Part shown: in pieces, positions 22,701 to 53,054 of the stretch
Layout of the letters: each line of letters begins with the position of its first letter
Numbering within the stretch: the first letter of the stretch is position 1
DNA from: a virus
Length of the DNA: 64,000 nt
IMG/VR virus record: IMGVR_UViG_3300033388_000874
Coordinates: 639-64,638 of that record
Strand: one strand, 5' to 3'
Position numbers and translations under genes: made by a program
Notes under the pieces: generated by a model
What the model was told of the DNA's origin: nothing
What the model saw: only the letters and a program-made list of their open reading frames with translations
Database searches by the model: none

Positions 22701-25700
22701 AAGCGGTAGTCAAGGAAGCTAACACACGTTTGAGATTCGCTTTGAATCGTGCGAAGAAATTCCTCGACCGATTCGATACTACCGGTGAGTACGGAACGTA
22801 CGTTGCAGATAATACGAATGTGGATGGCACATTGACACAAGCGGCCCGTGATTTCATGGCGGCTCGTGCGGTACTACACGAACTCGCCGACTTCGCAAAT
22901 TCAGCACTCGCATCTGGAAACACGAGCAACGCCCACGCAAAGATGGCGAAGAAGGTTGCTATCGCATTGGAGCGGGTGAAGCTCGGCAAGATGACTCCGC
23001 AGTTGTTCGCGAAAGAGTTTAGCGCGGTCGCCGAGTCAACAGACTATAAGATGTTGAGGAACGTACCTGCTCGCTTCAAAGAGTCTGCCACGGTGCGCGA
23101 CAAGAAGATCACCAAGAGCAACAACGAACGCCACAATGCGAACGTGCGTCAGGATCGCTTGGAGAATAAGTGGGGTAAGGACAAGATTTGGACAGAGAAT
23201 GTCGGCCCCATATTCCGTAAGTTCAGCGACGCAATGCTATCAGGTATGCGGTTGCAGTCGGGTGCGATAACCCCCTACTACAACCCAACGCTGCTTGAGA
23301 TTGAGGGGCTGCGATATGCTCTACGCACGTTCCGCAAGATGACCCAGCGGTATCCGACGAGTGAGTTCTACACACCTGTTAAGGAACAGCTTGAGTACTA
23401 CGGCTTTGAGTTCGATGCCAGTGGTGATGTCATCGTACAAGATTTTAGCCCGAGCGAGAACTTGCTGGGTTCCAGCTTCATCGAGAAGCATGGTGTATCG
23501 AAGAAAGCTGCTGGGGAAATTAGTGGTACTGGCCCAGTTCGCACAGATGTAATCGTGACACCTGATTCGACAGCGGTGCGCGGTGCGCGTGACAAGGCTG
23601 ATAAGGTTAAAGCGGTCAGTGGAATCAACATGGCGAACGCCTTGCTTGAGAAATTACAGGGTATGGTTTATACCGCGAAAGTCACAATTAACGGTATAAA
23701 GCGTCAGGAGCAGCGATTCATACGCGGGCTTAGAAAGCTCGGCGCATGGACAGATACGTCTCCCGGCATGGGAAAGATCAGTTTTGGTGGGTATGCGAGC
23801 AGAACGTACCGTCTGGTTGGCCCGAGGTTGGACAATCGCACCATGAGTAAGGGGGAGGCCAAGGGTGCAATTGAGCATTTGAAGCGTTTTGCGATGCCTC
23901 GCGAATTAGCGGCATTGGCCCGTTCGCAGCAGAATGTTGACGCTGCCAGTAACATCGACGAATTCATAGATACTAACAGCACGGAGTTCTTTTTAGAAGA
24001 ATTGAAACTCGAAGAAAATTCACCAGCCCTTGACAATGCTGCCAGTACTGTGGGTGACATTATCCGCGACAAGTACTCGGCGGCGTCGATCAACGATGTA
24101 CTCGATGCCATCATTGAGCAATTACCATCTGACCACTTCTATCATCGGTTAGCAGTGAAACTTCGTTCGCTGGGTATGGCGGATGTGACGTTGCAGTACG
24201 ACTGGACTGGTTCAAAATTCCACGGTAAGAAACGCAACCATCTCGGCATGTTTGATCCGAGTACCAACCGTGCGTATCTGAACCGGCGCAAGATGCTCGA
24301 TGACATGGATGTGATGTCAGGTAGCAAGGCTATCCACACCATGCTCCATGAAATGCTCCACGCTGCCACGCACAATGCGTTGGCTCATAGCTGGCCCCTA
24401 CGCAACCAGATGTTCCAGATACGTGCTGCCGCTTACCACCAGTGGGTGAAGGCAAACGGCAAGAAGAACCTACCTATAGGTTTGCGGCTTACTGATAGTC
24501 AGGGCAATCCCGCACCTGTTGATGAATTCGTTGTGGAAGTGTTTTCCGATGAAAACTTGCAGGATCACCTTCGCAACACGCCTGTAGAATTGGAAGGGTC
24601 GGCAACTGGCCTATCCGCCGCGTGGTCGAAGATCAAAGACGTACTTATCGAGATTCTGGGATGGGGTAACGTACCCGAAGTCCGTAACCTACTCGACGGA
24701 TTCATGGCTACCGCCGATGAAGTATTTTCTCAGGCAGGGGTTGCGCGTGAAGGTTCGGACGTACTCAATCTTGAATTGTATGACACACAACTTGGGAACG
24801 TCGCACGATCTGCATGGGATAAGATCAGCCAGCACAGCAGCATTGTCCAACGTGTGAAAGATGCAGGTGGGTCAGTTTTACGTAATATCCAGACGCTTGA
24901 GCAGTTCGTCGAGAACTACGCCAAGGAGTTCGTGGCAGATGGTAAGTCGATGCTCCAGCAGTACAGTGATGCATTCAACGCTCGTAACGCGAGAGCTAGT
25001 GAGTACATGAACGTGCCACAGGCTATCTCGCAGCAGTGGACGAAGTTGGAAGAAACTGACCCTGCCGGTGCGCTGGAACTTAGTCGCATCGGTACGGTAG
25101 CATCATTGAATCGTGTCACTGCCGCTGAAGCACCTGAAGACGGTAACGCGACTCACGCTGACATACACGCCCGTTACAATGCGTTATCAGCCGAAGCGAA
25201 GAAGGTCTACCAAGCCACGACAAAATACTATACCGAAGCATCCCAGCGCGAGCATATGTTCCTGCTCCAGTCGGCACTGCGCGGTATTATGACGAACAAG
25301 CAAGGTATCGGCATTGACCTCGACGTATTCGAGTCGAAGTTCAACGTCGCAGAGCTTGGCAAGATCGAGTCACGTGAAGACTTATCCAACATGATCGGGG
25401 AATACGTACCCGAAGAAGCGCGGTCTGAGATGATCGACCAGCTTTACAGAATGTCTGTCGTTCCACGGCAGCAGAAAGGCGACTACTTCCCTGCCATGCG
25501 TTACGGGGATGAGGTCGTGTATGCAGAGAAGTTAGCGCAGGAACAAATTTTTGAGGATCGCAAAGAAGCATGGGGTGTTCGCGCAGAGATAGCTGCCACA
25601 GACCCGACGCTTGACGTACAGATGTTGAAGACCGACGATGGAATGTGGGCCGTACGTACGTTCGAGCGCGAGTTTGTTATGGCTGAATCAGTGAGTGAGA

Positions 25701-40488: not shown

Positions 40489-42342
40489 TCACTTCGCGTC
40501 TCCATAGGTTTGACCCCACGCTGCCTCTGCATCAATCGGTAGATCAGGTGCAAAGCTAGGCGGGGTTTTCATTATCTGTAGCACACCGCGTTCGTATTCC
40601 TCAACGCGATTCTCAGGCACAACATACACCAACTCATCATGCGCTTGCAACGCTGGCCGTAGACCGAGTTCCTTGCGAACTCGTATCATATGTTCTGTAA
40701 TTGTAATGCGAGCGAGACTCTGGACAATGTTCTCCACCATCTTCCCACCCCATAAAGTTTTGGGTCGTTCGGCGTGTGTGAATGACCAGCCACGATACTT
40801 CTTCGTGTCTATGTAACGTAGGTTGTGGTACCAGATAGCCATGCCGTTGGGTAGGGTCAGCCGATCATGCGTAGCCATGCATGGCCCGATCATCGCCATT
40901 GCCTCTCCTGTCGCCATCTGCTCGATGACACCATCACAGTACTTCCACATGGCAGGGATTTGGTGGTACTCGTCACGGTAAGCGTACACATATTTGTTGA
41001 CCTCTTGCTGGTCTGCTTTGTATCCATCCTTACGTAACGTCGCTTGTAGCTTCTTCCACCCCATGCCATAGCCAAGGCCGAGGATGCAGGTCTTTCCGAT
41101 GAACCGCTCAGTCTGGTCTGCTTTCGTAACAGGGCGACGGAACGCTTTGGATGCGAAGGCGCAGTATGGGTCGCCGCCAGTCTGGAAGACTTCTAACAGG
41201 GGTTTGCAATTCGATAGCCAAGCATTCAGCCGAGCCTCGATCTGTGACAAGTCACTCGCGAGTACCACGTACCCATCCGGTGCGGCGACTGCGTACCTTA
41301 GTTGATCCCTGCTTGGGTTCTTCGGGTCAACGCGGGTGAGGTTTTGGCAGTTGATCTTTTCCATGCCACCGTAGCGGCCTGTGTGAGCGCCGTAGTAGCG
41401 CAGGGGCACCCGAAGTGATCCATACTGCTCAGCAATGTCAATAAATCGCATGGTGCGGCTCTCAGTCAGCGTGGACTTGGTTCCAAGCCTTGCTGCTAGG
41501 ATAGGCCCGACCAGCGGATCGTCTTGGTATTCTTCCTCCATGTCCTTGAACTCGGGGTCAGTCTTGGCGAATGCATATGCAGGTTTCAGGGTTGTGGGGC
41601 TGATCTTCATGGGCACATCAACGCCCAATGCCTCCAGCACCTTTGCAAACTTCGGATTGGAACTCAGTTGGGACTGGTTCACTGAAGGTGGTAGTGCCGC
41701 GAGCAGTGCTTTCTTTTTCTCACGTGCGTTATGAAGTACGTTCCTAAGTATGTCGATGTCCAACACGAACTGCGGCTGTATATACATGCGCAGAGTCATG
41801 TCGATGATCCAATACTCGTCTTTCGGCAGACGTTCCTTTAGGCGATTGAATAGCCACCACTCCCCATCGCAGTCATCCGCACAGTATGCTGCGTACTTCT
41901 GGAACTCCTGCGGTGTCAGCGATTCGAGTCGCCTCCCGAGCATATTGCCAACGTACGTACCCTTCGACAGCGGAGAAGACTCGTGTACCAAACACTTCGC
42001 GAGCGATATCGACCGATGAAATGGTTTCAGTGTTGCCTGTGCCATGCACAGAGTATCGAAAAGCATCAGCGGTATGATCCCCAAGACAGTCTCTAGGATC
42101 AAAGCATCGAACATCGTATTGTGGCACAACACCGCTCCACGGTGAACGCCCCTTGCTTCCAAGGCTTGCTTGTATTCTGCGTGTGTCGTAAAGCTCAATA
42201 TCTCGGTAGGGTCGTCGTTCTTCTTCACTCCCACCATGATAATTTGAAATTGCGCGTCTGAAACGTAAGCCTCGGTACTCATCTTTGACAGCGAGTAAAT
42301 CTTGCTGTAGTAAGTCTCGAAGTCGATAGTAAATACGTCCAC
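40489..42342 (-). CDS. family A DNA polymerase with 3'-5' exonuclease domain
   Basis: 617 aa; Exo I 'FTIDFETY'; motif B 'RFIGKTCILGLGYGMGWKKL'; motif C 'LQAHDELVYVV'; GTG start. Confidence 0.85.
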   Translation of the reverse strand: MDVFTIDFETYYSKIYSLSKMSTEAYVSDAQFQIIMVGVKKNDDPTEILSFTTHAEYKQALEARGVHRGAVLCHNTMFDALILETVLGIIPLMLFDTLCMAQATLKPFHRSISLAKCLVHESSPLSKGTYVGNMLGRRLESLTPQEFQKYAAYCADDCDGEWWLFNRLKERLPKDEYWIIDMTLRMYIQPQFVLDIDILRNVLHNAREKKKALLAALPPSVNQSQLSSNPKFAKVLEALGVDVPMKISPTTLKPAYAFAKTDPEFKDMEEEYQDDPLVGPILAARLGTKSTLTESRTMRFIDIAEQYGSLRVPLRYYGAHTGRYGGMEKINCQNLTRVDPKNPSRDQLRYAVAAPDGYVVLASDLSQIEARLNAWLSNCKPLLEVFQTGGDPYCAFASKAFRRPVTKADQTERFIGKTCILGLGYGMGWKKLQATLRKDGYKADQQEVNKYVYAYRDEYHQIPAMWKYCDGVIEQMATGEAMAMIGPCMATHDRLTLPNGMAIWYHNLRYIDTKKYRGWSFTHAERPKTLWGGKMVENIVQSLARITITEHMIRVRKELGLRPALQAHDELVYVVPENRVEEYERGVLQIMKTPPSFAPDLPIDAEAAWGQTYGDAK

Positions 42343-42358
42343 GATAGTAAATACGTCC
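42323..42358. repeat. tandem 18-bp direct duplication at the DNA polymerase start
   Basis: plus strand CGATAGTAAATACGTCC(A/C) x2; minus GGACGTATTTACTATCGT x2, duplicating the first six DNAP codons (VDVFTI) in frame. Confidence 0.5.
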
Positions 42359-42359
42359 C

Positions 42360-42536
42360 CTATCGTCCTGATCTTGGGAATGTTTTGATGCTCTCGACAA
42401 GTATGTCTCCCTTACAGAAAGGACAAACAACAGGTGTTTCCACCCGTTGCGTCCTAACTACCACCTTAATATCCAGTCGGCATTTATCACACCACAACTG
42501 GAACTTGGTGCATTTGCTGTTGTCTGCCACACTCAC
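42360..42536 (-). CDS. small zinc-ribbon protein (58 aa, below the ORF-track cutoff)
   Basis: GTG start after GAGAGG; 'CTKFQLWCDKC...VCPFCKG' = C-x7-C-x2-C...C-x2-C; stop TAG immediately before the tandem repeat at the DNAP start. Confidence 0.35.
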   Translation of the reverse strand: MSVADNSKCTKFQLWCDKCRLDIKVVVRTQRVETPVVCPFCKGDILVESIKTFPRSGR

Positions 42537-42575: not shown

Positions 42576-42944
42576 TCATGGGTGGTATGCCCCGCTGATG
42601 CAGTGAAGTAGTTCGTGGCCGAGTGCGTCCATTGCCGGATCACCTAACACCTGTTCCGGTAGCGTTGCGGTGATGAGGCACCAAGAGAAATTGTTGTCGA
42701 AGTCTGGTGTGTACTCTGCGTACGCCTCATACCCATCGGGCATGTCATCCTTATCGATGAAGTTCACCATGACTATGGAACCTCGCAGGAAGTATTCGGC
42801 TATGACCGGGGGGCCGTAGGGTTCGTAACACACTTGGTCAGAGGGGGGCGCGGGATCAGTGGTCATCCACTTCATAAGCCCATAAGAAAGGCCAGCACCA
42901 GTGAATAGTACTAGCCAGAAAACTACCGTCGCCAACCTTGTCAT
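42576..42944 (-). CDS. membrane-anchored HExxH metallopeptidase-like protein
   Basis: 122 aa; N-terminal TM/signal 'LATVVFWLVLFTGAGLSYGL'; C-terminal 'LGHELLHCISGAYHP'; preceded by palindromic motif copy 1 and a sigma70-like promoter. Confidence 0.4.
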   Translation of the reverse strand: MTRLATVVFWLVLFTGAGLSYGLMKWMTTDPAPPSDQVCYEPYGPPVIAEYFLRGSIVMVNFIDKDDMPDGYEAYAEYTPDFDNNFSWCLITATLPEQVLGDPAMDALGHELLHCISGAYHP

Positions 42945-42954
42945 AGTGTCGCCT

Positions 42955-42969
42955 TTACAACCGTTGTAA
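42955..42969. repeat. palindromic motif copy 1 (TTACAAC-C-GTTGTAA on plus)
   Basis: directly downstream of the -10 of a TTGACT-16nt-TAAGAT promoter (43005..42978, minus) and 10 nt before AAGGCGA-ATG of 42576..42944. Confidence 0.6.
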
Positions 42970-42977
42970 GATGGGCC

Positions 42978-43005
42978 ATCTTAGCACACTGATAAGTAGA
43001 GTCAA
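42978..43005 (-). promoter_or_regulatory. sigma70-like promoter (minus strand)
   Basis: TTGACT (43005..43000), 16-nt spacer, TAAGAT (42983..42978); palindromic motif starts about +2. Confidence 0.35.
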
Positions 43006-43059
43006 CCTACGTTTTGGGTGCCTAAACGAAGGGTATAACCTGCACCTATAGACAATAAA

Positions 43060-43092
43060 AAACCCCGACCAGCATTGCGCCAGCCGGGGTAC
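43060..43092 (-). terminator. putative rho-independent terminator (minus strand)
   Basis: minus-strand CCCCGGCTGG...CTGGTCGGGG imperfect GC stem followed by TTTTTT(ATT). Confidence 0.4.
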
Positions 43093-43107
43093 TTACAACC
43101 GTTGTAA
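43093..43107. repeat. palindromic motif copy 2
   Basis: between the stop of 43111..43908 and the minus-strand terminator hairpin. Confidence 0.6.
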
Positions 43108-43110
43108 GTT

Positions 43111-43908
43111 TTAGTTGGTATGGACAGAGGGGTATCCGTCCACGTGCCGCACTTCAATCATCATGCTCATTTGTACGAGTATGTGAGTAAGCGCCTCGAA
43201 GACACGTCGCTCGAATACTAATTCCTCTGGGGTTTGGTCTTCGTGTCGTGGTTCGAGGGAGAGGAACTGATCGACAGTACCCCAATCGGATATACGTGTT
43301 GGCATTCTAGACTTCATGTTTGCCTGACGCGCTACGTCGCGGCACTCGACAGGCATGAAGGCCATCAACTCAGGCCAGATTCTCATCAGTTGTCCGGGCG
43401 TGTTACAGGCTATTCCGGGTGTCGGGCCTCCACGCCGACCTCCCGTTGTGCTGTTAAAGCCTGCATAGTCATCCCACTCCCAATCGAATAGGTCATCAAC
43501 GCGCTTATACAACTTCTTCCGTAGCTTCTTTAGCTTGATCGCCTTACATACCCATGCTTGGATATTCTCTTGCACATCGACATGCAACTGTGCGAACTCC
43601 ACCGGGATATCAGGTCTTCGCTTACCATCGGGGAAACCGAACGTAATGTGATCCCGCTCCCATGTCGATCTGCCTTTCTTATCGTCTGTGAACAACTCGA
43701 ACGAGTCGCTACGGCTCAGACATTTCCGACCCAACTTACTATCCAATAGTACCTCAAGTGAGTTCCACTGTTTCTTTTTGAACGCGGGTCGATAGACATC
43801 TTCCAACGCATCAAACTTAACAGGATTTACAATCTCACAGTACTTGTCGAAGTGTCGGCAGACTTGGTTGGCAATGCGACTGCGGAAGTCCCGATTAAAG
43901 CGCGTCAT
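43111..43908 (-). CDS. hypothetical protein
   Basis: 265-aa ORF followed by a hairpin + T-run terminator on the minus strand. Confidence 0.4.
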   Translation of the reverse strand: MTRFNRDFRSRIANQVCRHFDKYCEIVNPVKFDALEDVYRPAFKKKQWNSLEVLLDSKLGRKCLSRSDSFELFTDDKKGRSTWERDHITFGFPDGKRRPDIPVEFAQLHVDVQENIQAWVCKAIKLKKLRKKLYKRVDDLFDWEWDDYAGFNSTTGGRRGGPTPGIACNTPGQLMRIWPELMAFMPVECRDVARQANMKSRMPTRISDWGTVDQFLSLEPRHEDQTPEELVFERRVFEALTHILVQMSMMIEVRHVDGYPSVHTN

Positions 43909-45166
43909 CGATCAAATCCACTTCAATAATCTCGCCCGGTATGTCGTGACTTGGGCGATAGTCTGTCGTTGCACACCATATGACTGGAAAGTCTGCATCT
44001 GTCGGGAAGCTACCGCCCATGTCTGTGAAGTACACCAGACAATCAGGACGTAGCCCATGTTCCTCAAGCCACACGAACGGTGGAATGAATGACGTACCTC
44101 CGCCACCTCCCAACGAACATAGCTCCGGTTGACCACGTAACGTGTCACCGCTTCCCAACTCATGCACAGTATCTACACGTGCATCGCATCCCATCAGGTA
44201 AACGAACTCCGGGTTGCAGTCAGTCAGAATCTTGTCACACTCAGTTAGTCCTTGTGCGATCTCCATCTGTGACATGCTTCCCGATGTATCAACTACGAAT
44301 ACAACCACTCCGCAACCAAAGCCTTTGTAGCTCGGCATGATAACGCCTTGGGTGATGTACCTTCGACGATTGAGCTTGCTCCAGTCACTCGCATCCCTGC
44401 CTATAGCCTTGGTGAATGCGTACCGTAGTTTCTCCGTCCACGGAATCTTCGGCTTAAGTAATTCATCGACGAATCTCTCAAGTCCCGCTGGCATTTTACC
44501 CATTGCCTTGGCAGCGTCTCCCGCTGTTTTGACAGCACGTTTCCATTCGACTTCACTACCAGTATTGGCAGCACTAGGCATAACGTGTGTGTCAAGCGTA
44601 CCGTCACCCTGTCCTTCCGGGCCTTGGTTGTTGTGACCACCCCCACCATCGCCCTGACCTTGACCTTCGGCATCGCCCTCACCGCCGCCACCTTCCTGCT
44701 GTTGCTTGAGTAGCTTACGGTACACTTCGTCAACCATGTCACCAGCCGATGCGATACTTACATCGTGCAAGCCCAGCTTCGGCATCTTACCAATCCTCGA
44801 CACAACTAACATATCGTTGATTACATAGTCACCAGCTTGGTTCCATAGACGCGGGTCAAACTTCTTACCATCGAACCCTGTGTCCTGATACTTCTTGCCA
44901 CGTGACATATGTGACCACATTGCGTGACCAACTTCGTGGCACATGACAAACACCGCTTCAGGCAGTTTGAGTGATTCGATGAAGTCCTCATCGATCCACA
45001 CGTTCTTACCGTCCGTCGCCATAGTCTCGTTACCCGGTGGAAATATCTGTGGGAACTTACCGAGCTTTATGACCATCATGTCCAGAAGTAACGATGCAAA
45101 GAATGGGCAATGCAAAAGCATCGCCGTCTTACACTCAGTTAGTTTCTGCTGTGCCGACATTTGCAT
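43895..45166 (-). CDS. vWA domain protein with N-terminal metallopeptidase-like domain (DUF2201-type MoxR partner)
   Basis: 423 aa; 'VFVMCHEVGHAMWSH' HExxH; MIDAS 'VVFVVDTSGSMS'; Gly/Gln-rich linker; standard partner of MoxR AAA+ ATPases. Confidence 0.65.
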   Translation of the reverse strand: MQMSAQQKLTECKTAMLLHCPFFASLLLDMMVIKLGKFPQIFPPGNETMATDGKNVWIDEDFIESLKLPEAVFVMCHEVGHAMWSHMSRGKKYQDTGFDGKKFDPRLWNQAGDYVINDMLVVSRIGKMPKLGLHDVSIASAGDMVDEVYRKLLKQQQEGGGGEGDAEGQGQGDGGGGHNNQGPEGQGDGTLDTHVMPSAANTGSEVEWKRAVKTAGDAAKAMGKMPAGLERFVDELLKPKIPWTEKLRYAFTKAIGRDASDWSKLNRRRYITQGVIMPSYKGFGCGVVVFVVDTSGSMSQMEIAQGLTECDKILTDCNPEFVYLMGCDARVDTVHELGSGDTLRGQPELCSLGGGGGTSFIPPFVWLEEHGLRPDCLVYFTDMGGSFPTDADFPVIWCATTDYRPSHDIPGEIIEVDLIDDAL

Positions 45167-46439
45167 ACTCCTTCATCATGCCAAAGATAGCAGTTGCCTG
45201 TTCACCCAACCGCCTACGGAGTGCGTCGTCCTTACGCACATCTTTTACGTCATGGTTGGTGAGCTTACCCTTCACTCGCAGACGTATAGCCTCGATCCGC
45301 TCGTCCTTTGTGACGTTAAGATGAGACAGCATCGACGCATGCTCTGCCAACTTATCGAACAGAGTGTAGTGGAACATTGCGTCCGGGTTTGATAACGCCG
45401 TTGCAGCACGTTCAACATCGTCATACAGACGTTGCCAAGCATCCTGCATTGCATTTTCCAACCGCTTCTGCGTCTTGCGTTGCAATGCACCAGCTAACTT
45501 CTCAACCTGTGCATCCTGCAAGCCCTGATAGTCACCGCCGACAGGTATCGGCTCAAAGTCAAACTCCAACGTGAAGTGTTGCTCAATCGCAGCGGGGGCA
45601 GGATACTCATTCTGATTGAATGCCTTTCCTAACTTCTGTTGCGAGATAGCGATCAGCGTTGGGTATGCTGTCGTGAACTTATCAAGCGACTCAAGCATTT
45701 CGACCTTGTGCATGCCCATTATCTGCGCGTACTCAAAGAACAGTGTGTTCGGAAGTAGCCGAGCGCCGGAACGCTTGCCGTGATCGTTGATCCCAACGGT
45801 TGACCACGGAAGGGTCATCCGGTAGTGATCGGTACGAGCAGCATCGATAGCTTTATGCACACGTTTCAGTTTCTCGTCGGCACCGACAAGCAATCTCTTG
45901 CGCGCCTCGAATGACTTAGCATCTGCACCGCTGGCATCCGCAGCATCCTTCGCTGCTTTGCGATCCTTAACCTTCGCATGCCACCTTCTATTCGTGAGTG
46001 ACACAAGAGTACCGAAGTTACGTATGTCCATCTCCTCCATAATCTCCTCACTCGTGAACGTAGGTACCGGAACGATATGCTCCTCAACAGCTTCACTGAA
46101 CATGGTGTTGTCGATCTCAGGAAGATCAGCCGCGTTTACAACGGTTGTAAGTTCCTGTTCCTCGATAGCACTGATCGCCTCGGGTGTCGCAGCAACTACC
46201 GCCGCCGTTTCCTCATTGAGTAACGATTCAAGGGTTGCATTGCTACTTGGTACAGGTGGTGATAACGGTCGCGACACTGGACTATTCGGGTAGCTAGGGT
46301 CGGGCGCACCTTCGACCTGTGGGGTTTCAGGGGTGTCGGGTGCTATAGCACTAGGTGCTACAGTTTCCTCTACCACTGGCTCTTTATCTTGCAATACGTC
46401 ATCGAGTAATGACTGTATATCCATGTCAAATCCTGACAT
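45135..46439 (-). CDS. hypothetical protein with acidic, Pro-rich N-terminal region
   Basis: 434-aa ORF between the vWA and MoxR genes; contains motif copy 3 in frame (ELTTVVNAADL). Confidence 0.4.
   Translation of the reverse strand: MSGFDMDIQSLLDDVLQDKEPVVEETVAPSAIAPDTPETPQVEGAPDPSYPNSPVSRPLSPPVPSSNATLESLLNEETAAVVAATPEAISAIEEQELTTVVNAADLPEIDNTMFSEAVEEHIVPVPTFTSEEIMEEMDIRNFGTLVSLTNRRWHAKVKDRKAAKDAADASGADAKSFEARKRLLVGADEKLKRVHKAIDAARTDHYRMTLPWSTVGINDHGKRSGARLLPNTLFFEYAQIMGMHKVEMLESLDKFTTAYPTLIAISQQKLGKAFNQNEYPAPAAIEQHFTLEFDFEPIPVGGDYQGLQDAQVEKLAGALQRKTQKRLENAMQDAWQRLYDDVERAATALSNPDAMFHYTLFDKLAEHASMLSHLNVTKDERIEAIRLRVKGKLTNHDVKDVRKDDALRRRLGEQATAIFGMMKEYANVGTAETN
46135..46149. repeat. palindromic motif copy 3 (inside ORF 45135..46439, in frame as TTVV)
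   Basis: exact TTACAACGGTTGTAA. Confidence 0.6.
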
Positions 46440-46450
46440 ATGTTTCTCCT

Positions 46451-47521
46451 TTACATGCTCGAAAGCAAGTTAGCGTTCACGATGAGTGCCTTGTTCTCTT
46501 TAACCCACTTGGCAAAGTCCTGATTGTTCAGAACTTGGGGCTGACGTTTCAATGTTGCCTTGAGTCCAGCTACCTGAAATTCTTCTGGCATACGTTTCAG
46601 ATAATTGAACGCGGGTGCTGCCGTACCACCGTCGACACGATGCGCGATCATTTGCATAGTTGCGAACTGTGCATCGGGTCGATCAGTCTCAGGTAGTTTG
46701 CAGCCCTTCGGATCAGCTACGATTTCATCAAAGGTTGGCAGTTGCTCAACCACTCGCAGGAATGATGTAAACTCTGCTGCTGCACCTTCACCGATGTACC
46801 CTGCTGCTGCCTCAGTGAACAAGTCACTAGGTAGTTGCTCAATCAGGTAGGACATTTGCACGAACGAACGTGGTGTGCAGAATGGCCCGGCCTTCTCGGG
46901 TACTGTGTCTTGGAATACCAGACCGGGCTTGTGCTTCGCGAATGCAATCGCTGCCCAATGGATATCCCCTTTACGTTCGGCCCAGTCCACCCAACTATCC
47001 AAGTCAGGCGTAATGGTGATTAGCATACGTCTGTTGGTAACGAACATGAGTTCACGTTGCACACCCGAGCGATCCTTCTCTCGGTTAGATGCTGCGAGTA
47101 CCATGTACGTGATTGGAAGCCATGAGTCATTCACCCTACCTTTCAGTAGTAACTCTGCGGCTGGCTTTTGCACATCATGTGCTGATTGCCGAAACTCATC
47201 CAAGAAGATGAACCCATGATCGGGATCGCCAGATCGCGGCATCCACGGCGCACGTGTGTAGTTCATAATCTTATTGCCTTCCTCATCCGAACCCGGTAGT
47301 CCGAAGCCGCCCATGTCGGGTGCCTCCTTACTGTTGAGAAAGAAGTCTTTGTTGGCGAAGGGCAATTCCATTTCCTCGCCCAACTCAACTGCCAACTGAT
47401 CCACCATTTCTGACTTACCAAGTCCCGGCCCGGATTCCAACTCAATGGTGAATCGGTTTCCTGTCTTAACTTGCTGGTGGTACGTTGACTTAATCAACTG
47501 CTTTGCTTGCATGATATTCAT
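46451..47521 (-). CDS. MoxR-like AAA+ ATPase
   Basis: ATG at 47521 after GAGGAAA and palindromic motif copy 4 (track extends to 47563 through the motif); Walker A 'ESGPGLGKSE', Walker B 'FIFLDEF'. Confidence 0.65.
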   Translation of the reverse strand: MNIMQAKQLIKSTYHQQVKTGNRFTIELESGPGLGKSEMVDQLAVELGEEMELPFANKDFFLNSKEAPDMGGFGLPGSDEEGNKIMNYTRAPWMPRSGDPDHGFIFLDEFRQSAHDVQKPAAELLLKGRVNDSWLPITYMVLAASNREKDRSGVQRELMFVTNRRMLITITPDLDSWVDWAERKGDIHWAAIAFAKHKPGLVFQDTVPEKAGPFCTPRSFVQMSYLIEQLPSDLFTEAAAGYIGEGAAAEFTSFLRVVEQLPTFDEIVADPKGCKLPETDRPDAQFATMQMIAHRVDGGTAAPAFNYLKRMPEEFQVAGLKATLKRQPQVLNNQDFAKWVKENKALIVNANLLSSM

Positions 47522-47940
47522 ACTGTTTCCTCGTTTACAACGGTTGTAAGATCGACCATGCACACCGTATCTTCTGGTGCGCCAATGGCCGAATGATAAC
47601 GCTGATACTTATCAGCAAATGTGCTTCCCTGAATGATGTAAATCATGCCGGGAAAGTTCTCTTGTATACGTATCCAAGCTGCGCTCTCGATACACGTATC
47701 TTCATCCTCCATCGTTCGCAGTAATAGACAAATCCTATCCGTCACTTCACCTTCGTTACGCATGAAATACACCTGATGTTCTCCTTCGACAATCACGAAT
47801 CTCATGTTGGTATGTTCTAGTTGGTGGCGGGTTCCTTCACCGTAATGCAAGAACTCCCAATCACACTTGTCAACGGGTGCTGCAAAACATACGGTGCTAT
47901 TCTCGGGCTGATTAACCCTTTGGTCTGGGTACAGAATCAT
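47518..47940 (-). CDS. hypothetical protein
   Basis: ATG at 47940 preceded by AAAAGGAGG (track start 48036); C-terminus '...DLTTVVNEETV*' reads through motif copy 4; ATGA overlap with the MoxR start. Confidence 0.4.
   Translation of the reverse strand: MILYPDQRVNQPENSTVCFAAPVDKCDWEFLHYGEGTRHQLEHTNMRFVIVEGEHQVYFMRNEGEVTDRICLLLRTMEDEDTCIESAAWIRIQENFPGMIYIIQGSTFADKYQRYHSAIGAPEDTVCMVDLTTVVNEETV
47535..47549. repeat. palindromic motif copy 4
   Basis: followed on the minus strand by ACGAGGAAACAGT-ATG (MoxR start). Confidence 0.6.
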
Positions 47941-48047
47941 GCGACCTCCTTTTACGCTCAATCGATGCGTATGCGCGACGCTGCTTACGGTTAGTGGGAA
48001 AGTGTTTCTCATTCCCAATTGCGGATACGTCCCCAAAAAAGAAACGC

Positions 48048-48326
48048 CTAATCTTCTTCCAGAATTTCATTGACTACTCCGTGTTTTTCCGCTGTCTCAT
48101 CGAATCCAATGAGCGTAATGATTGGGAAGAATTCCCTGAACAGAAACAGGTGCGACATATAATTTGCACCCATGAGTCTCATAGCCTTAACTGCTAGGTT
48201 CCAGTCCTCCAAGTTGCCTAGCTGTTTGGCAAGGTCTTCTGCCGCTGCCATGATAAAAAAGATATTGCCATCTGGCCCGGTAACGTCCAGACACAACCCT
48301 AACTGCGAGTCTCTATACACGGCCAT
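48048..48326 (-). CDS. hypothetical small protein
   Basis: 92-aa ORF, same strand and tight spacing in the early operon. Confidence 0.35.
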   Translation of the reverse strand: MAVYRDSQLGLCLDVTGPDGNIFFIMAAAEDLAKQLGNLEDWNLAVKAMRLMGANYMSHLFLFREFFPIITLIGFDETAEKHGVVNEILEED

Positions 48327-48335
48327 GATAACGGC

Positions 48336-48620
48336 CTACGCGAACAATGCAGGGACTATGAATGCATCCTCCGCTATTTCGCAGTCAAGTATTCCCTCCG
48401 CGAGTACGGTAGCTGGCCCATCCTTCGACCAATGTGGCAACATCACCACGCGGAATCGTTGGAATTCCTCGTCATCCATCAATCGCTGAAACACCTGCGT
48501 CTGAACGCGGCCATTCCAACTAGCCGCCTCCACCTGCAAGCCCGAGTCTTTCGATCCACCGCGAGTAACTTGCTTACTTCCATTACCCTGTAGCGAACCA
48601 TAGAAAGTCATCTTACCCAT
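48336..48620 (-). CDS. hypothetical small protein
   Basis: 94-aa ORF. Confidence 0.35.
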   Translation of the reverse strand: MGKMTFYGSLQGNGSKQVTRGGSKDSGLQVEAASWNGRVQTQVFQRLMDDEEFQRFRVVMLPHWSKDGPATVLAEGILDCEIAEDAFIVPALFA

Positions 48621-48783
48621 TCTGTTCTCCTTCCAGTTTCATGCCCCAAACATCACGCCAGTACTCATCGTTGTATTCGATTTGCACTGGTTGTCGGGCG
48701 TTAGATTGTGGTTCCCACTCAAGTGTGTCGATGGTGGGGTCTGCCGTGTTGTAAGGGTCGGTTCCTTTTGTGTTGTCTGACAT
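48613..48783 (-). CDS. hypothetical small protein
   Basis: ATG at 48783 6 nt after AAGGAGA, directly downstream of motif copy 5 (track extends to 48843 through the motif). Confidence 0.35.
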   Translation of the reverse strand: MSDNTKGTDPYNTADPTIDTLEWEPQSNARQPVQIEYNDEYWRDVWGMKLEGEQNG

Positions 48784-48794
48784 TCCTGTCTCCT

Positions 48795-48809
48795 TTACAA
48801 CGGTTGTAA
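48795..48809. repeat. palindromic motif copy 5
   Basis: TAG stop, motif, AGGAGACAGGA, ATG. Confidence 0.6.
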
Positions 48810-49082
48810 CTATTTGATGCCGACTCCCATGCAGTCCCACCAAGCTAGGTTGGGTACATATGAATTAGAAGCAGCGTCCCATTCGCCGAGATCATGCGAC
48901 TCATTCAAGTGCGCACACTTCTGTACCAAAGTCTGTTGGGGTGTGGGGGGTGCGGTGATAACGCTTTCGCCCTTGGCTGTTTGGATCAGTGCTACCACGA
49001 TCACTATATATAGCAGCGCAAGGCATGATAGGGACAGAGCTACCAGTCCCAACTCCATTTGCCTACGTATGTTACGGCGCAT
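48810..49082 (-). CDS. small membrane protein
   Basis: 90 aa; 'LVALSLSCLALLYIVIVVALI' TM helix; stop TAG immediately followed by motif copy 5. Confidence 0.4.
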   Translation of the reverse strand: MRRNIRRQMELGLVALSLSCLALLYIVIVVALIQTAKGESVITAPPTPQQTLVQKCAHLNESHDLGEWDAASNSYVPNLAWWDCMGVGIK

Positions 49083-49362
49083 AGTTATTCTCCTGTGCCT
49101 CGATTAACTCCTGCAACTTCGTTGTGAAGCCCGGATCGTTAGTGGAAAAGATGATGCTTTTATTGAACATCGTCTCGCGGTTCTTCTGCCATGCGTAGGC
49201 AACTCGTTGTGCAGAGTCGGCGGGCAAGGGTGCGTTGTTCCGCATCCAATGATCGCCTATGTAACAGGTGTGTCCAATGAATTGGAGTGCTGCTTGCAAC
49301 TCATCGTATGCCTGCTCAACGTCCTGTGTGTCTACGCACATACGTACACTAAACTCAATCAT
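49072..49362 (-). CDS. hypothetical small protein
   Basis: 96-aa ORF. Confidence 0.35.
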   Translation of the reverse strand: MIEFSVRMCVDTQDVEQAYDELQAALQFIGHTCYIGDHWMRNNAPLPADSAQRVAYAWQKNRETMFNKSIIFSTNDPGFTTKLQELIEAQENNYAP

Positions 49363-49577
49363 GGTAGTTCCTTATGTCAGAGAAATGATTGCCAACACGA
49401 TTGTCATGGTGGCAAGGATGCGGCGGTTGTCCGGGTGTCCAGCCCGGATCGTGTATGCCAGAATGGTAAGAAAGAAAGCGCCAAAGAATGCGACGCTGGT
49501 GATAACGCTAAAGGTCACGGTGACGCCCATCTAACTGATCGCCGCCTGAATTTCAGGGGTCAATTCTCGTTCTTTAT

Positions 49578-49841
49578 TCATGAAGTCTCCTTAATCGTCC
49601 AATCGAGGCCGGGGTACTGTCTCTCAACCTCGTGCATGGCCTCCTTCGTAGCTTGTTGCTCGGTACGGTTCATAATTTTCCATCTACCAACTATGGCCTC
49701 GCCGTCGTAAACCTCAACACGCCAATTCATGCGCATGTCATCTGTGAACACAATTGTCACACGTGGATCAGCTTGAGACTCGTCGTCGTACTCGGCAGTT
49801 TTAACTGTTCTGCCAACAATATCGCTGATGAACTTCTTCAT
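49578..49841 (-). CDS. hypothetical small protein
   Basis: 87 aa; motif copy 6 then AAGGAGA, 6 nt, ATG. Confidence 0.4.
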   Translation of the reverse strand: MKKFISDIVGRTVKTAEYDDESQADPRVTIVFTDDMRMNWRVEVYDGEAIVGRWKIMNRTEQQATKEAMHEVERQYPGLDWTIKETS

Positions 49842-50152
49842 TCGTCTATCTCCTTTACAACGGTTGTAAGATATGCCTTGCCATCACTGTGATACCAAGA
49901 CATGAATCGAGCATAGAATCTGTGCCCAGCCCCATTACCTTTCGGGGGCGTGTTGCCTGTGATTGATTGCATCCACCACTCAATAACCTCCATTTTGTAT
50001 AGCGCGGCCTTTGCCCAATTCTCAGGCTCTGGCCCATGCACTAGGAGACACATGATATATTTAGGCTCACGCCGGGTGCGTTTTTGCTTTCGGGACTTTC
50101 GACTGGCGTTGCTTGGCATTCCAGTTCTCCTTGCACCAGTGCATGTACTCAC
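49838..50152 (-). CDS. hypothetical small protein
   Basis: 104 aa; C-terminus '...AYLTTVVKEIDE*' reads through motif copy 6; ATGA overlap. Confidence 0.35.
   Translation of the reverse strand: MSTCTGARRTGMPSNASRKSRKQKRTRREPKYIMCLLVHGPEPENWAKAALYKMEVIEWWMQSITGNTPPKGNGAGHRFYARFMSWYHSDGKAYLTTVVKEIDE
49855..49869. repeat. palindromic motif copy 6
   Basis: motif, AGGAGATAGACGA, ATG. Confidence 0.6.
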
Positions 50153-50366
50153 CGTATAGCCCCTGATGTGGGTTGTGTTCCAGTTCGCCCATCATGTCCT
50201 TGATGCGCATACCGTAGTTGACATTCTTCGCGACGTACCTTCGTTGTGCATCCAATCCAGCGTGTAAGATCGGGGGGATTGGGGGTTCGCCGAACATGAG
50301 TAGTAGCGTTACGAATAGAATCTCTGCATCTTCTACTCGGCCACCATTGTATTGCTTGTTGTTCAT
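50067..50366 (-). CDS. hypothetical small protein
   Basis: ATG at 50366 in ATGA overlap with the upstream stop (track extends to 50432). Confidence 0.3.
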   Translation of the reverse strand: MNNKQYNGGRVEDAEILFVTLLLMFGEPPIPPILHAGLDAQRRYVAKNVNYGMRIKDMMGELEHNPHQGLYGEYMHWCKENWNAKQRQSKVPKAKTHPA

Positions 50367-50908
50367 TGCATTTGCCTCGCATACGTGCGCGTGATAACGC
50401 CGTGTCGCTGTTCGTATTGCCACCTGTGCCAAGCGAAATAGAATTTGAGGAACTGTGCTGCCTGATTTCTAAACGTAGTGATCCCACGCTTAAGGCACCA
50501 CTCACGAACGTCTTGCTTCCAGAACATATGTTCCCTCTCAATCTCATCACCCAACGAATAGTTCCTGCCACGTCGGGCAAGCACGTATTCCTCCCAGCGC
50601 GGGAGTTCACCGAAGCGCACCATGCATTCAGTACATATGCTGTCTAATGCAGGGTAGGTGAACCCTTCCCGCCATTTGCTATACACATGATTCTTGCGAC
50701 GGACATATTTCTCTACTGCGTATCTCTCTTTCAGTGCCTTCTTCACGTTCTGCCCTCCATAACATCCGGTCAATACTTGTCGATAGGGCGTCGACTGCTG
50801 TGCGTAACGCATTCGATCCCGCTTTCCATCCATAGCGATCAACCAAGTAGCTGCTGACCACGCGATACCATTCGTTTGAATCACTCCACGGTGCGCATGG
50901 CCCTGCAA
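50363..50908 (-). CDS. hypothetical protein (start uncertain; conflicts with 50679..51050)
   Basis: 181-aa ORF (TTG start in track; first ATG at 50833); aromatic/basic composition typical of a globular protein. Confidence 0.3.
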   Translation of the reverse strand: MQGHAHRGVIQTNGIAWSAATWLIAMDGKRDRMRYAQQSTPYRQVLTGCYGGQNVKKALKERYAVEKYVRRKNHVYSKWREGFTYPALDSICTECMVRFGELPRWEEYVLARRGRNYSLGDEIEREHMFWKQDVREWCLKRGITTFRNQAAQFLKFYFAWHRWQYEQRHGVITRTYARQMQ

Positions 50909-50989
50909 CCAGCAAGACCTCCATCACTATGTCGGGAGAGTCCCGCTCTAGCAGTCTCCAAACTGCCGAGCGGTATTGCTCTCGGTTCA

Positions 50990-51277
50990 CTACTGTTGCC
51001 GCATGCGAGCGCGTGATAACGCTTCGTCGTAGGTAGCGCGGGATATACACTGCGCGCCGCTACGCCCGACTGATCTGTCCTCTATCCAGACGCCATTGTT
51101 TGATAGACATGATGCTTTCGCCTCACGTGCATCAAGCCTCGCATAGTGAGACTCCCACTGCGCGTCGGTATTCGGGGTTGTCGAACACCCAGACTCGGCG
51201 CTAAGTACGGCTATCGCCAAGACGATCATCAAGACCACTGTCCAGATACTTCTTTCGTCTTTCCTTTCCATTACCAT
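50990..51277 (-). CDS. secreted/membrane-anchored small protein
   Basis: 95 aa; 'WTVVLMIVLAIAVLSAESGCSTT' signal-peptide-like N-terminus. Confidence 0.4.
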   Translation of the reverse strand: MVMERKDERSIWTVVLMIVLAIAVLSAESGCSTTPNTDAQWESHYARLDAREAKASCLSNNGVWIEDRSVGRSGAQCISRATYDEALSRARMRQQ

Positions 51278-51504
51278 TCTCCTTCGTCTGATTCATATGT
51301 CTCAAACGCTAACTCGCTGACGCAAGTCCATCGCTCACCACCCACTGATTTCAACCTGCCGCCGCCATACTTCACAACCATAGCAGTCTGACCATCTGGA
51401 CAGACTATTCGGTTCGGCGTTGGCGAGAACGAGTTCTCACGTGTGTGGCTCGTATTTGCACAGCCTGCCATGATTAGCAGGCACAAGATCACAATCATCT
51501 TCAT
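51271..51504 (-). CDS. small lipoprotein
   Basis: ATG at 51504 after motif copy 7 + CAGGAG; 'MKMIVILCLLIMAGCANTSH' signal peptide with lipobox-like MAGC (track extends to 51642 through the motif). Confidence 0.45.
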   Translation of the reverse strand: MKMIVILCLLIMAGCANTSHTRENSFSPTPNRIVCPDGQTAMVVKYGGGRLKSVGGERWTCVSELAFETYESDEGEW

Positions 51505-51516
51505 TTCATACTCCTG

Positions 51517-51531
51517 TTTACAACGGTTGTA
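51517..51531. repeat. palindromic motif copy 7
   Basis: motif, ACAGGAGTATGAA, ATG (lipoprotein). Confidence 0.6.
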
Positions 51532-51559
51532 AGGTGTTGGGTTGTTAGGCGACGCAAGG

Positions 51560-51961
51560 CTACACCCATTCTCCATAGCGCCGCATTGAATGATACGCCG
51601 CACGTGATGCCGGTGTATCGTGTTTGGTAAGTACGTATGCAAGTGGCTTGTATAGCTCGGCCTCCAGCATCACCTGCCAAGGCATATGCTGACAGGTGAA
51701 ACCCTGCGCGCTCCCAAGCATCCAATCTTTGAGGTCTATAAGCTGCGATGATAACGGTGACTCTGCCTTGAGGCAGTAGTCTATGGCGTTAAGCAAGGCT
51801 ACCTTGAGCGCGAGGTATTTCTCATGCTGATGTGCTGCTCCACTAAAGGATATGTGGTAATAGCTGCTGATGTACTGCGAATGACCGGGATAAGACTGGT
51901 CTGTGTATCGCGGATGTAAGTCCGGGTTTGAAAGTTGCTGTTTGGAAGTTACGGTACTCAT
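51560..51961 (-). CDS. hypothetical protein
   Basis: 133 aa; motif copy 8 + CAGGAG upstream. Confidence 0.4.
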   Translation of the reverse strand: MSTVTSKQQLSNPDLHPRYTDQSYPGHSQYISSYYHISFSGAAHQHEKYLALKVALLNAIDYCLKAESPLSSQLIDLKDWMLGSAQGFTCQHMPWQVMLEAELYKPLAYVLTKHDTPASRAAYHSMRRYGEWV

Positions 51962-51978
51962 TACTTTGGTACTCCTGT

Positions 51979-51993
51979 TTACAACGGTTGTAA
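51979..51993. repeat. palindromic motif copy 8
   Basis: motif, ACAGGAGTACCAAAGTA, ATG. Confidence 0.6.
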
Positions 51994-52027
51994 GATTAAA
52001 GGTTTGAAATCGTGCGTGTCAAAGCTG

Positions 52028-52320
52028 TTTGGACAATCAGGCCAATCACTCGTATGGTTTGGTGAATGACTATCCTTTAGGATTAGATACTTACATGTGA
52101 ATGTCTGAATGTCCAGCGTTTTAAAATCAGGGACAAGTTAGGGAGTGGGGATGTTGGGTCGTTCGTAAAAACGCAAACATGTTCACTCTCAAGAAATCTC
52201 TATAAGGTTCTACCTTATATAAGTGAGACATTCAGACATTCATATATATATACACGTAATCTATAGGGTTTCCACTGTCAGACCACTGTCCGATTGTCCA
52301 AATCCGTTCTGGACATTCAC
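52028..52320. repeat. nested inverted repeats / iteron-like GACATTC repeats in a 500-bp non-coding region (candidate origin or control region)
   Basis: TTGGACAATC (52028-37) vs GATTGTCCAA (52291-300); GAATGTCTGAATGTC (52098-112) vs GACATTCAGACATTC (52226-240); third GACATTC at 52311-17; CATATATATATAC AT tract at 52240-52252; CCACTGTC x2 at 52271-89. Confidence 0.5.
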
Positions 52321-52500
52321 TTTAGTGCCTACAGTACGCGCTTATGATAACGGTTCTGCCTAAAGCCCCACATAATGACGTACTTTGAAAGTTGCTGTTT
52401 GGAACCTGACATACTGTGATCCTGTTGGGATTTGGGGTTCTCGCTACACGTGTAGGCAAATGAAAGCCGGGCGAACCCGGCAATCATTCTGTCCTGCATG

Positions 52501-53025
52501 TTACAGATTGTACTCGGCAACCAGTACGTTAAGCGCCTTGCGGAACTTAATGATCTTCTGGCTACGTGTTTCAATCAACTTGATCGCAGACAACGCACGT
52601 TCCAAAGCCTTTTCAGGACTTACAACGGTTGTAACTTTCTTGGCCTTGATCGACTTGATTACTGCGGCAACGGCATCCTTCCAACTTTCGTGCTTGGGTA
52701 ATGCGCGAGCCAACATCAAGACATGCGTACGGCGAAGCTCGCCGAAAGTCTTGCGGAACGCAGTGGTCGCTTCGCCGAAGTAATAAGGGTATGCAATCAA
52801 GCAAGCCTTAATCTCGGACTTCCGAGCGCCTTCCGAGCTAGTACCCTTCCACGGCGCGTCTGCGGCAACATCCGTCTGTACGTTAGCAATTTGCTCGGCA
52901 GTCATATCATCGCCACCAAAGGTTGCGGTGCATGCTTCCACTAAGCCTGACACCATCTGTTGCATGGTGATCGCAGTCTGTGAATCCAGCTTGCGAATGG
53001 AACTAACAATTGACTTGATACTCAT
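52501..53025 (-). CDS. first gene of the minus-strand early operon, hypothetical protein
   Basis: ATG at 53025 after motif copy 10 + GAGGAG (track extends to 53085); contains motif copy 9 in frame (KKVTTVVSPEK). Confidence 0.4.
   Translation of the reverse strand: MSIKSIVSSIRKLDSQTAITMQQMVSGLVEACTATFGGDDMTAEQIANVQTDVAADAPWKGTSSEGARKSEIKACLIAYPYYFGEATTAFRKTFGELRRTHVLMLARALPKHESWKDAVAAVIKSIKAKKVTTVVSPEKALERALSAIKLIETRSQKIIKFRKALNVLVAEYNL
52620..52634. repeat. palindromic motif copy 9 (inside ORF 52501..53025, in frame as TTVV)
   Basis: exact TTACAACGGTTGTAA. Confidence 0.6.
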
Positions 53026-53039
53026 GTGTCTAACTCCTC

Positions 53040-53054
53040 TTACAACGGTTGTAA
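53040..53054. repeat. palindromic motif copy 10
   Basis: motif, GAGGAGTTAGACAC, ATG of the first early gene. Confidence 0.6.

Follow-up and report, generated by a model that had tools for sequence, protein, structure and literature searches.

A three-gene cassette of an AAA+ ATPase, a DUF3150-like protein and a zincin-vWA protein in phages and conjugative plasmids

A gene pair for an AAA+ ATPase and a von Willebrand factor A (vWA) protein belongs to the core of N4-like phages and occurs in more than 400 sequenced phage genomes, and its function has been unassigned since N4 was sequenced. What could such a pair do for a phage, and which of the genes around it belong to it? We addressed both questions with a 64,000-nucleotide (nt) stretch of an uncultivated virus (IMG/VR record IMGVR_UViG_3300033388_000874, from a viral contig of 64,638 bp), hereafter the window. 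Within 42576-47563, the list of open reading frames (ORFs) holds five on the minus strand, which encode an ATPase, a 434-residue protein (p434), a vWA protein with a fused zincin-like metallopeptidase domain, a 265-residue protein (p265) and a 122-residue protein (p122). A first-pass annotation, made from the sequence alone, had taken the five genes for one coherent unit around a canonical MoxR-vWA couple; the ORFs and the motifs it quoted exist at the coordinates it gave. The genome also encodes terminase, portal/adaptor and internal virion proteins, DNA polymerase A, a PD-(D/E)XK nuclease, an SNF2-type helicase and a primase-helicase. The ATPase, p434 and vWA genes share the strand of the replication/early genes, opposite the structural genes, and the genes for DNA polymerase, nuclease and helicase follow immediately downstream. 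We found that the coherent unit is a triad of ATPase, p434 and vWA genes with a variable fringe. The window carries a compact and apparently translationally coupled version of it, with an unusual acidic extension on its DUF3150-like protein, and is otherwise an ordinary member of the group.

We surveyed the gene neighbourhood in IMG/VR, where 29 loci (L003-L031) came from related uncultivated phages, some of them overlapping cuts of one contig. In all of these loci with enough flank, the order was ATPase-p434-vWA, followed by the DNA polymerase, nuclease and helicase genes, and the ATPase was always coupled to a gene for a vWA protein with a metal ion-dependent adhesion site (MIDAS). The triad was kept together in every fetched locus with enough flank, whichever member had served as the query, and down to 24-30% identity for p434. 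The acidic 434-residue protein between the ATPase and the zincin-vWA protein is thus a true partner, as the first-pass annotation had proposed, and its expectation of co-conservation was borne out for these three genes, in plasmids and a metagenome-assembled genome (MAG) as well, but not for p265 and p122. In tblastn searches, the ATPase found 469 phage records and the vWA protein 418, mainly Schitoviridae and also Rhizobium phage RHph_TM3_14A, Thermus phage phiFa, Bacillus phage G, and Planktothrix and Synechococcus phages; p434, p265 and p122 each had no tblastn match in cultured phages. Megablast with the 5-kb region as query found no match among 50,697 phage records. Synechococcus phage MinM2 and the Planktothrix phages carry genes annotated as 'MoxR family ATPase - DUF3150 - VWA-like' in this order. 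The triad or the pair stands in a replication context in the virus studied here, N4, nACB1, RHph_TM3_14A and MinM2.

The triad also occurs outside phages. About 60 plasmid records contain a DUF3150-type homologue, and six of six plasmids, from Simplicispira, Burkholderia pseudomallei, Ralstonia, B. gladioli, Rhodovastum and Cupriavidus, have the order ATPase - DUF3150-like - VWA-like, with confirmation by hidden Markov models (HMMs) covering two plasmid loci, L033 and L034. Neighbours of the plasmid triads include type IV secretion system (T4SS) genes, a DNA cytosine methyltransferase, DUF4942, a toprim protein, ParB and a zeta toxin. A scan of genome contigs with a single sequence returned one locus, and a contig of a Cloacimonadota MAG carries the triad. 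In B. gladioli plasmid p1, a 267-residue beta-clamp-like gene (DNA_pol3_beta_2, 38 bits; L042 7033-7836) is placed between the ATPase and the DUF3150-like gene, and a PRTRC-system ThiF gene lies upstream. A seventh plasmid, of Candidatus Manganitrophus (L044, CP114559.1), has no vWA gene; its DUF3150 gene is accompanied by DUF1257, DUF2997, a JAB-domain protein and an AAA ATPase that is longer and of another kind. This suggests that DUF3150 is able to pair with other AAA+ systems.

The ATPase contains the expected Walker A motif (GPGLGKSE, 47408-47431) and a Walker B motif (FLDEF, 47192-47206). Its sensible start is the ATG at 47521, which follows the Shine-Dalgarno (SD) sequence GAGGAAA and gives 356 residues, the same length as in the orthologues of L035 and L036; the earlier end at 47563 is the upstream GTG of a mechanically called ORF and is not the favoured start. 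Across 22 aligned family members, G33 and K36 of the P-loop, N146 and R164 are invariant and D108 and E109 of Walker B are kept in at least 90%, which makes up the AAA+ core set of Walker A, Walker B, sensor-1 (N146) and arginine finger (R164). The only library match of the window protein was phrog_1297 (4e-62), and a single-sequence search of the PDB with it gave no match. When the family profile was compared with solved structures, the AAA modules of midasin scored best (2.4e-18 summed, with 0.0019 as the best single-domain independent E-value), and NtrC, ClpB and CbbQ, the last at 4.5e-4, were matched as well. On AAA_5, for which the cutoff is 22 bits, homologues from the MAG, MinM2, a plasmid and N4 (gp24) score 20.4-25.7 bits, and their scores on generic AAA are equal. 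A 'MoxR-like/AAA_5' label is reasonable for a family at the AAA_5 threshold, and 'canonical MoxR' says too much of a protein that matches no curated model and whose best solved relatives are midasins. The ATPase presumably assembles as a ring.

The vWA protein matches Pfam DUF2201_N, a putative metallopeptidase (PF13203; 3.3e-35, 122.5 bits, cutoff 23.2), and DUF2201, described as 'VWA-like' (PF09967; 2.8e-17, 63.4 bits, cutoff 26.4), and a Gly/acidic linker connects the two domains. Domains and motifs bear out the earlier description of an HEVGH metallopeptidase-like domain plus a MIDAS vWA domain. In 21 phage and plasmid sequences, H77, E78, H81, H86, D113, D293, S295, S297, T358 and D382 are invariant, so that both the HExxHxxxxH zincin motif and the full MIDAS set (DxSGS, T, D) are intact across phages and plasmids. 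A single-sequence PDB search returned low-complexity noise only. RefSeq and PHROG (phrog_1314) call this family, including N4 gp25 (L038 2165-3307), 'HNH endonuclease'. Our analyses gave no HNH signature in the family, only HExxH and MIDAS instead, and the label looks like a propagated mis-annotation.

The third member, p434, consists of two very different parts. Its N-terminus is acidic and rich in proline, as described before, with 25 Asp/Glu, 2 Lys/Arg and 16 Pro among residues 1-125, and the remainder has a predicted isoelectric point (pI) of 8.3. In the AlphaFold2 (AF2) model, whose mean predicted local distance difference test score (pLDDT) is 72.8, a helical bundle with a three-stranded sheet makes up the confident core, and a short helix stands at the N-terminus. 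Residues 19-104 fall below 50 and are predicted to be disordered; the model had no specific fold match in the PDB. In relatives the N-terminal extension varies in sequence and length and is always acidic, with 30-56 Asp+Glu against 0-9 Lys+Arg. None of the 186 close homologues has a Pfam domain, and p434 itself does not match Pfam DUF3150 at E-values up to 10. Its profile, searched against 1.84 billion representative sequences, retrieved 6566 cluster representatives, most of them about 285 residues long and covering profile positions of about 140-428, that is, the C-terminal domain alone. One of these shorter proteins, P0255, matches Pfam DUF3150 (PF11348) with 36.3 bits against a cutoff of 24.9, and hhalign aligned it with the p434 family over 274 columns at 99.9% probability (E 1.7e-33). 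NCBI annotation likewise calls the MinM2 and Cupriavidus homologues of p434 DUF3150. From this profile homology, the C-terminal 300 residues of p434 can be assigned as a remote DUF3150-type domain of a very large family, and the acidic, proline-rich N-terminus is a disordered, clade-specific extension missing from most family members. Pfam comparisons of p434 with STAND, FtsH and beta-propeller families gave no match; VMAP lay outside this comparison. The features of the locus are collected in Table 1.

Table 1. Genes, domains, motifs and putative signals of the locus, in window coordinates.
Feature	Position	Strand	Basis or remark
140-aa acidic protein, directly upstream of ATPase	47518..47940	-	frequent clade neighbour
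Palindrome 13 nt upstream of ATPase start codon	47535..47549	.	overlaps 3' end of upstream gene
AAA+ ATPase, 356 aa	46451..47521	-	N4 gp24 family, AAA_5 / MoxR-midasin type
p434 (434 aa), putative third subunit, DUF3150-like	45135..46439	-	profile homology
p434 conserved N-terminal helix	46380-46439	-	consensus MSxFDxDIxSLLDDVL
p434 acidic Pro-rich linker, predicted disordered	46128-46385	-	AF2, composition
Palindrome inside p434 variable acidic region	46136..46150	.	ends 36 nt before Met113 codon
p434 DUF3150-like helical domain	45138-46064	-	profile homology
Zincin-vWA protein, 423 aa	43895..45166	-	N4 gp25 family, DUF2201_N + DUF2201
HEVGH, DUF2201_N peptidase-like domain	44924-44938	-	motif
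MIDAS DTSGS	44276-44290	-	motif
DUF2201 vWA-like domain	43952-44305	-	Pfam
p265 (265 aa), clade-restricted neighbour	43111..43908	-	14-nt overlap with vWA gene
Palindrome (43093-43107) just after p265 stop, then 13-pair terminator-like hairpin (43062-43090) and T-run	43052..43107	-	
Sigma-70-like promoter TTGACT-16-TG-TAAGAT (42978-43005), then palindrome (42955-42969)	42955..43005	-	
p122 (122 aa), membrane-anchored, independent accessory gene	42576..42944	-	HELLH

Gene content, intact motifs, co-conservation and genomic context are what we have observed so far. We infer complex formation, proteolysis and the nature of a client; for the mechanism, midasin, CbbQO, BchI/D and the ternary systems built on MoxR-vWA serve as models. 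Our preferred explanation, which we consider moderately probable, is that the triad encodes a machine of three subunits, driven by ATP, that remodels and cleaves proteins, is carried by mobile elements and acts beside their replication and establishment genes, a MoxR-vWA 'ternary system' as Kaur et al. (2020) use the term. The MIDAS site of the vWA domain would capture an acidic residue of the client, the AAA_5 ring would pull on or restructure it, and the fused zincin would cleave it, with the DUF3150-like subunit acting as an adaptor or regulator. Acidic disordered linkers occur in midasin and BchD, and the acidic tail of p434 might play their role. Judging from the gene spacing, with a gap of 11 nt between the ATPase and p434 genes and overlaps of 32 nt between p434 and vWA and of 14 nt between vWA and p265, the genes are probably co-transcribed and translationally coupled. 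The client is most likely a cytoplasmic protein of the host or the element met during establishment or replication (takeover, anti-defence or replisome-related), and not a virion component, because the same triad is found on conjugative plasmids.

Several points weigh against this explanation. The window ATPase has no Pfam match even at E=10 and no NCBIfam match, and no protein of the locus matched a PADLOC or other anti-defence family; NCBIfam and PADLOC scans of six proteins together gave zero matches. To our knowledge, protease activity has never been demonstrated for DUF2201_N. Our literature search yielded no functional study of DUF2201, DUF3150 or anti-defence by a phage MoxR-vWA pair, and no experimental datum for the gp24/gp25 or DUF3150 families. 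A DUF3150-like gene is not present in the first 50 kb of N4 or of RHph_TM3_14A, and it is therefore not obligatory for the ATPase/vWA pair. Finally, on two Burkholderia plasmids the triad abuts T4SS genes, so that a role in the assembly of an envelope machine or of another large machine keeps some plausibility.

A more specific proposal, which we offer only tentatively, is that the triad is an establishment machine common to phages and conjugative plasmids, in which an ATP-driven, MIDAS-targeted protease would remove or cleave a host protein that hinders replication of the incoming element. Its targets could be a component of the replisome, a defence sensor or effector, or a protein of the nucleoid or otherwise bound to DNA. 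Target choice would fall to the DUF3150 subunit, and the acidic tail would be a handle or decoy in this clade. If true, such a machine would account for the core status of gp24/gp25 in N4-like phages.

The adjacency to T4SS genes, builders of a large assembly, can also be read in favour of a virion-assembly chaperone, with folding or assembly of structural proteins left to the MoxR-vWA pair and their processing to the fused peptidase. Iyer et al. (2021) proposed such a role for the pair of group 2.2 jumbo phages, and an assembly role has been shown for the tails of Acidianus two-tailed virus (PMC7824862); roseophage RPP1 encodes virion proteins near its gp24/gp25 homologues (PMC4193335). However, plasmids build no capsids, and the presence of the same triad on capsid-less plasmids and in a MAG makes virion assembly less likely for this lineage. 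The position of the triad among the replication/early genes, opposite the structural genes, argues in the same direction, as do the N4 genes, which are middle and not late transcripts. We therefore consider virion assembly unlikely here.

Pairing of an AAA_5/MoxR-class ATPase with a vWA-MIDAS protein is likewise common to chelatases, CoxD, NorQ and NorD, which raises the question of whether the locus could insert a metal into a phage or host enzyme in the manner of CobS/CobT or BchI/BchD. The acidic, proline-rich segment of p434 recalls the BchD linker, and in one annotation related plasmid genes appear as 'CobS' together with a vWA protein (PMC4036041). Nevertheless, none of the five proteins matched CobS_N, CobT or Mg-chelatase models of Pfam or NCBIfam, the conserved neighbourhood contains no CobN/BchH-like partner or obvious metalloenzyme client, and chelatases have nothing equivalent to the zincin domain with its invariant HExxH. 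With no chelatase domain found and a protease domain fused to the vWA domain, we rejected a chelatase, which we regard as very improbable.

Slightly less probable again is that p434, with the ATPase and vWA genes as unrelated neighbours, serves in anti-restriction as an acidic DNA mimic; mimicry by p434 was an idea raised in the first-pass annotation. The extreme acidity of the N-terminal 125 residues would fit a mimic, and so would the early/middle phage region and the methyltransferase and toxin gene neighbours on a conjugative plasmid. Yet the acidic part is the variable tail, which is predicted to be disordered, so that we rejected a structured mimic, and this tail is entirely missing from the majority of the family at about 285 residues and from its members in MinM2 and on plasmids. 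A mildly basic domain is what the family conserves, no match to Ocr, ArdA or any other anti-defence protein was found in Pfam or PADLOC, and a joint function with the ATPase and vWA proteins is favoured by the strict co-occurrence of the three genes.

How far does the unit extend beyond the triad? p265 is present in most, but not all, of the clade, and has a confident structure model with no fold match in the PDB; HMM tests of p265 against ORFs found behind the vWA gene elsewhere, in phages as well as plasmids, gave no credible relationship. Other relatives (L004-L012 and L025) have two extra accessory families, of about 190-250 and 222-260 residues, between p434 and vWA and between vWA and p265, which are not in the window; the triad is therefore flanked by slots that tolerate insertions.

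As for p122, the N-terminal hydrophobic anchor and the HELLH motif (42603-42617) agree with the earlier description of a membrane-anchored HExxH protein, and its C-terminal end is HELLHCISGAYHP. C39, C89 and LGDxxMDxLGHELLHCxxGxxH are invariant in the 16 members of its family, and Pfam gave no match. p122 was rejected as a metzincin or classical zincin, for which HExxHxxGxxH followed by a Met-turn and a catalytic domain of at least about 130 residues were taken as the criterion: its HELLHCxxGxxH exceeds that motif by one residue, only a single residue follows the last His, and about 95 residues make up the ectodomain. The first-pass annotation had counted two extra HExxH proteins; since p434 and p265 have no HExxH, p122 is the only one besides the vWA protein. 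It is 60-61% identical to its homologues in the nearest relatives, L035 and L036. Its slot in L003 is filled by an unrelated 122-residue ORF, the other related loci with flank contain no homologue, and more distant homologues sit in unrelated contexts (L046, L047). We conclude that p122 is a real but independently mobile gene outside the module.

A palindrome, TTACAACSGTTGTAA, points to the same boundaries. It occurs in 10 perfect 15-mer copies in the 64-kb window, where 0.15 would be expected, all within 42955-53054 (at 42955, 43093, 46136, 47535, 48795, 49855, 51518, 51979, 52620 and 53040); it is thus confined to the minus-strand early region, usually 2-6 nt before an SD sequence. The first-pass annotation had three of the five genes preceded by it. 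We found it directly ahead of two, before the ribosome-binding sites of the ATPase and p122 genes (10 nt before the p122 start), and not ahead of p434, vWA or p265; the other copies of the locus lie inside p434 and after the p265 stop. The placements recur in the three nearest relatives: the copy upstream of the ATPase is at the same position in L003 and L036, the one within p434 is a perfect 15-mer at the equivalent site in L003, L035 and L036 despite the variable coding sequence around it, and the one after p265 is found together with the hairpin in L035 and L036. An internal start of p434 at Met113, downstream of the palindrome, has no SD sequence and is not claimed. The hairpin after p265 is the only terminator-like one in the block and, with the palindrome, appears to mark the end of four genes. 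At 51979 and 42955, a sigma-70-like -35/-10 pair stands immediately before the palindrome and puts it over +1, where an operator might sit; an operator, an RNA hairpin and a processing site are candidates for its role. Because of these placements of palindrome, hairpin and promoter-like site, ATPase-p434-vWA-p265 look like one coupled block and p122 like a separate unit.

A functional unit of five genes with p265 and p122 obligatory, although all five are adjacent in the window, L035 and L036 and the p265 gene overlaps the vWA gene, is thus the least probable reading and is largely refuted by the neighbourhood survey, with p122 set apart by its scattered occurrence and by the terminator-like hairpin and promoter-like site, p265 lacking in several members of the clade and in every triad beyond it, and other accessory genes in the inter-gene slots of relatives; what stands of the first-pass unit is its three-gene core.

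Further genes flank the locus. The 140-residue protein encoded upstream of the ATPase had tblastn matches at the same position in L003, L004, L007, L017 and L025, a 141-residue gene takes this position in L035 and L036, and searches of Pfam and PHROG with it gave no match. Between p122 and the DNA polymerase gene, a 58-residue ORF (42360-42536, minus strand) has two CxxC pairs (CDKC...CPFC) and may encode a small zinc-ribbon protein. At 42324-42358, an exact 18-bp tandem duplication (GGACGTATTTACTATCG-; TRF score 70) spans the GTG with which the DNA polymerase gene starts, and may reflect either a true doubling of the 5' end of the gene or an artefact of assembly. In the structural region, a 2676-residue ORF (19775-27805, plus strand) matches in its C-terminal part PHROGs of giant internal virion proteins and of a 'DarB-like antirestriction' protein (1e-42 to 1e-44), and its product may be an ejected multifunctional protein.

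The pair of ATPase and vWA genes was already known from Pfam entries, N4 gp24/gp25 and jumbo phages, and the triad is visible in the GenBank annotation of MinM2 and some plasmids; we found no paper on the triad or on DUF3150 in the context of a triad. What we add is that the pair is regularly joined by a DUF3150-type protein in many phages and plasmids and that the triad is also carried by conjugative plasmids. These observations narrow the hypotheses away from capsid assembly and towards cytoplasmic remodelling or proteolysis in replication or establishment, and they give DUF2201_N, DUF2201 and DUF3150 a common, testable context.

One of the closest known systems is the pair of N4. Its members, gp24 and gp25, count among the 14 genes that form the core of N4-like phages, are expressed as middle transcripts and have no known function (PMC4193335). 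N4 gp24 matches the HMM of the window ATPase family at 3.8e-67 and gp25 that of the vWA family at 9.8e-73, gp25 carries HELWH and DTSGS, and the two genes are adjacent, in the order of the window, and lie in the middle/replication region. In contrast to the window, the N4 pair has no DUF3150-like gene between its members, and the identity between the window proteins and the Schitoviridae versions is only about 25-30%. Group 2.2 jumbo phages share this architecture, in that a MoxR-type ATPase is paired with a vWA protein whose N-terminus bears a metallopeptidase domain; virion assembly was proposed for the pair with p618/p892 of Acidianus two-tailed virus cited (Iyer et al. 2021, PMC7824862), and Bacillus phage G carries homologues of both proteins. 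The jumbo-phage system was described as a pair, whereas the lineage of the window has a conserved third subunit. In midasin/Rea1, CbbQ-CbbO, RavA-ViaA and BchI-BchD, an AAA_5-type ATPase works with a MIDAS vWA domain, as we propose here; these systems have neither a fused zincin nor a DUF3150-like subunit, and the likeness is limited to the AAA core.

The cassettes of MinM2, Planktothrix phage Pag-Yong1 and the Burkholderiales and Rhodovastum plasmids, labelled 'ATP-binding protein - DUF3150/hypothetical - VWA-like domain protein', consist of the same three families in the same order. Their DUF3150-type proteins have about 290-310 residues without the acidic N-terminal extension, and small ORFs or a beta-clamp-like gene may be inserted. 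In its logic, the triad resembles the MoxR-vWA-centric ternary conflict systems of the VMAP, iSTAND, FtsH and beta-propeller types (Kaur et al. 2020, PMC7159879), in which a third conserved protein likewise joins the MoxR-type ATPase and its vWA co-chaperone, the latter carrying a fused effector-like domain. Here the effector, the zincin, is N-terminal to the vWA domain, and the carriers are phages and plasmids instead of multicellular bacteria. The third component of the triad is DUF3150-like and not of the VMAP, iSTAND, FtsH or beta-propeller type, and it accompanies the MoxR-vWA pair throughout this lineage and in all sampled plasmids.

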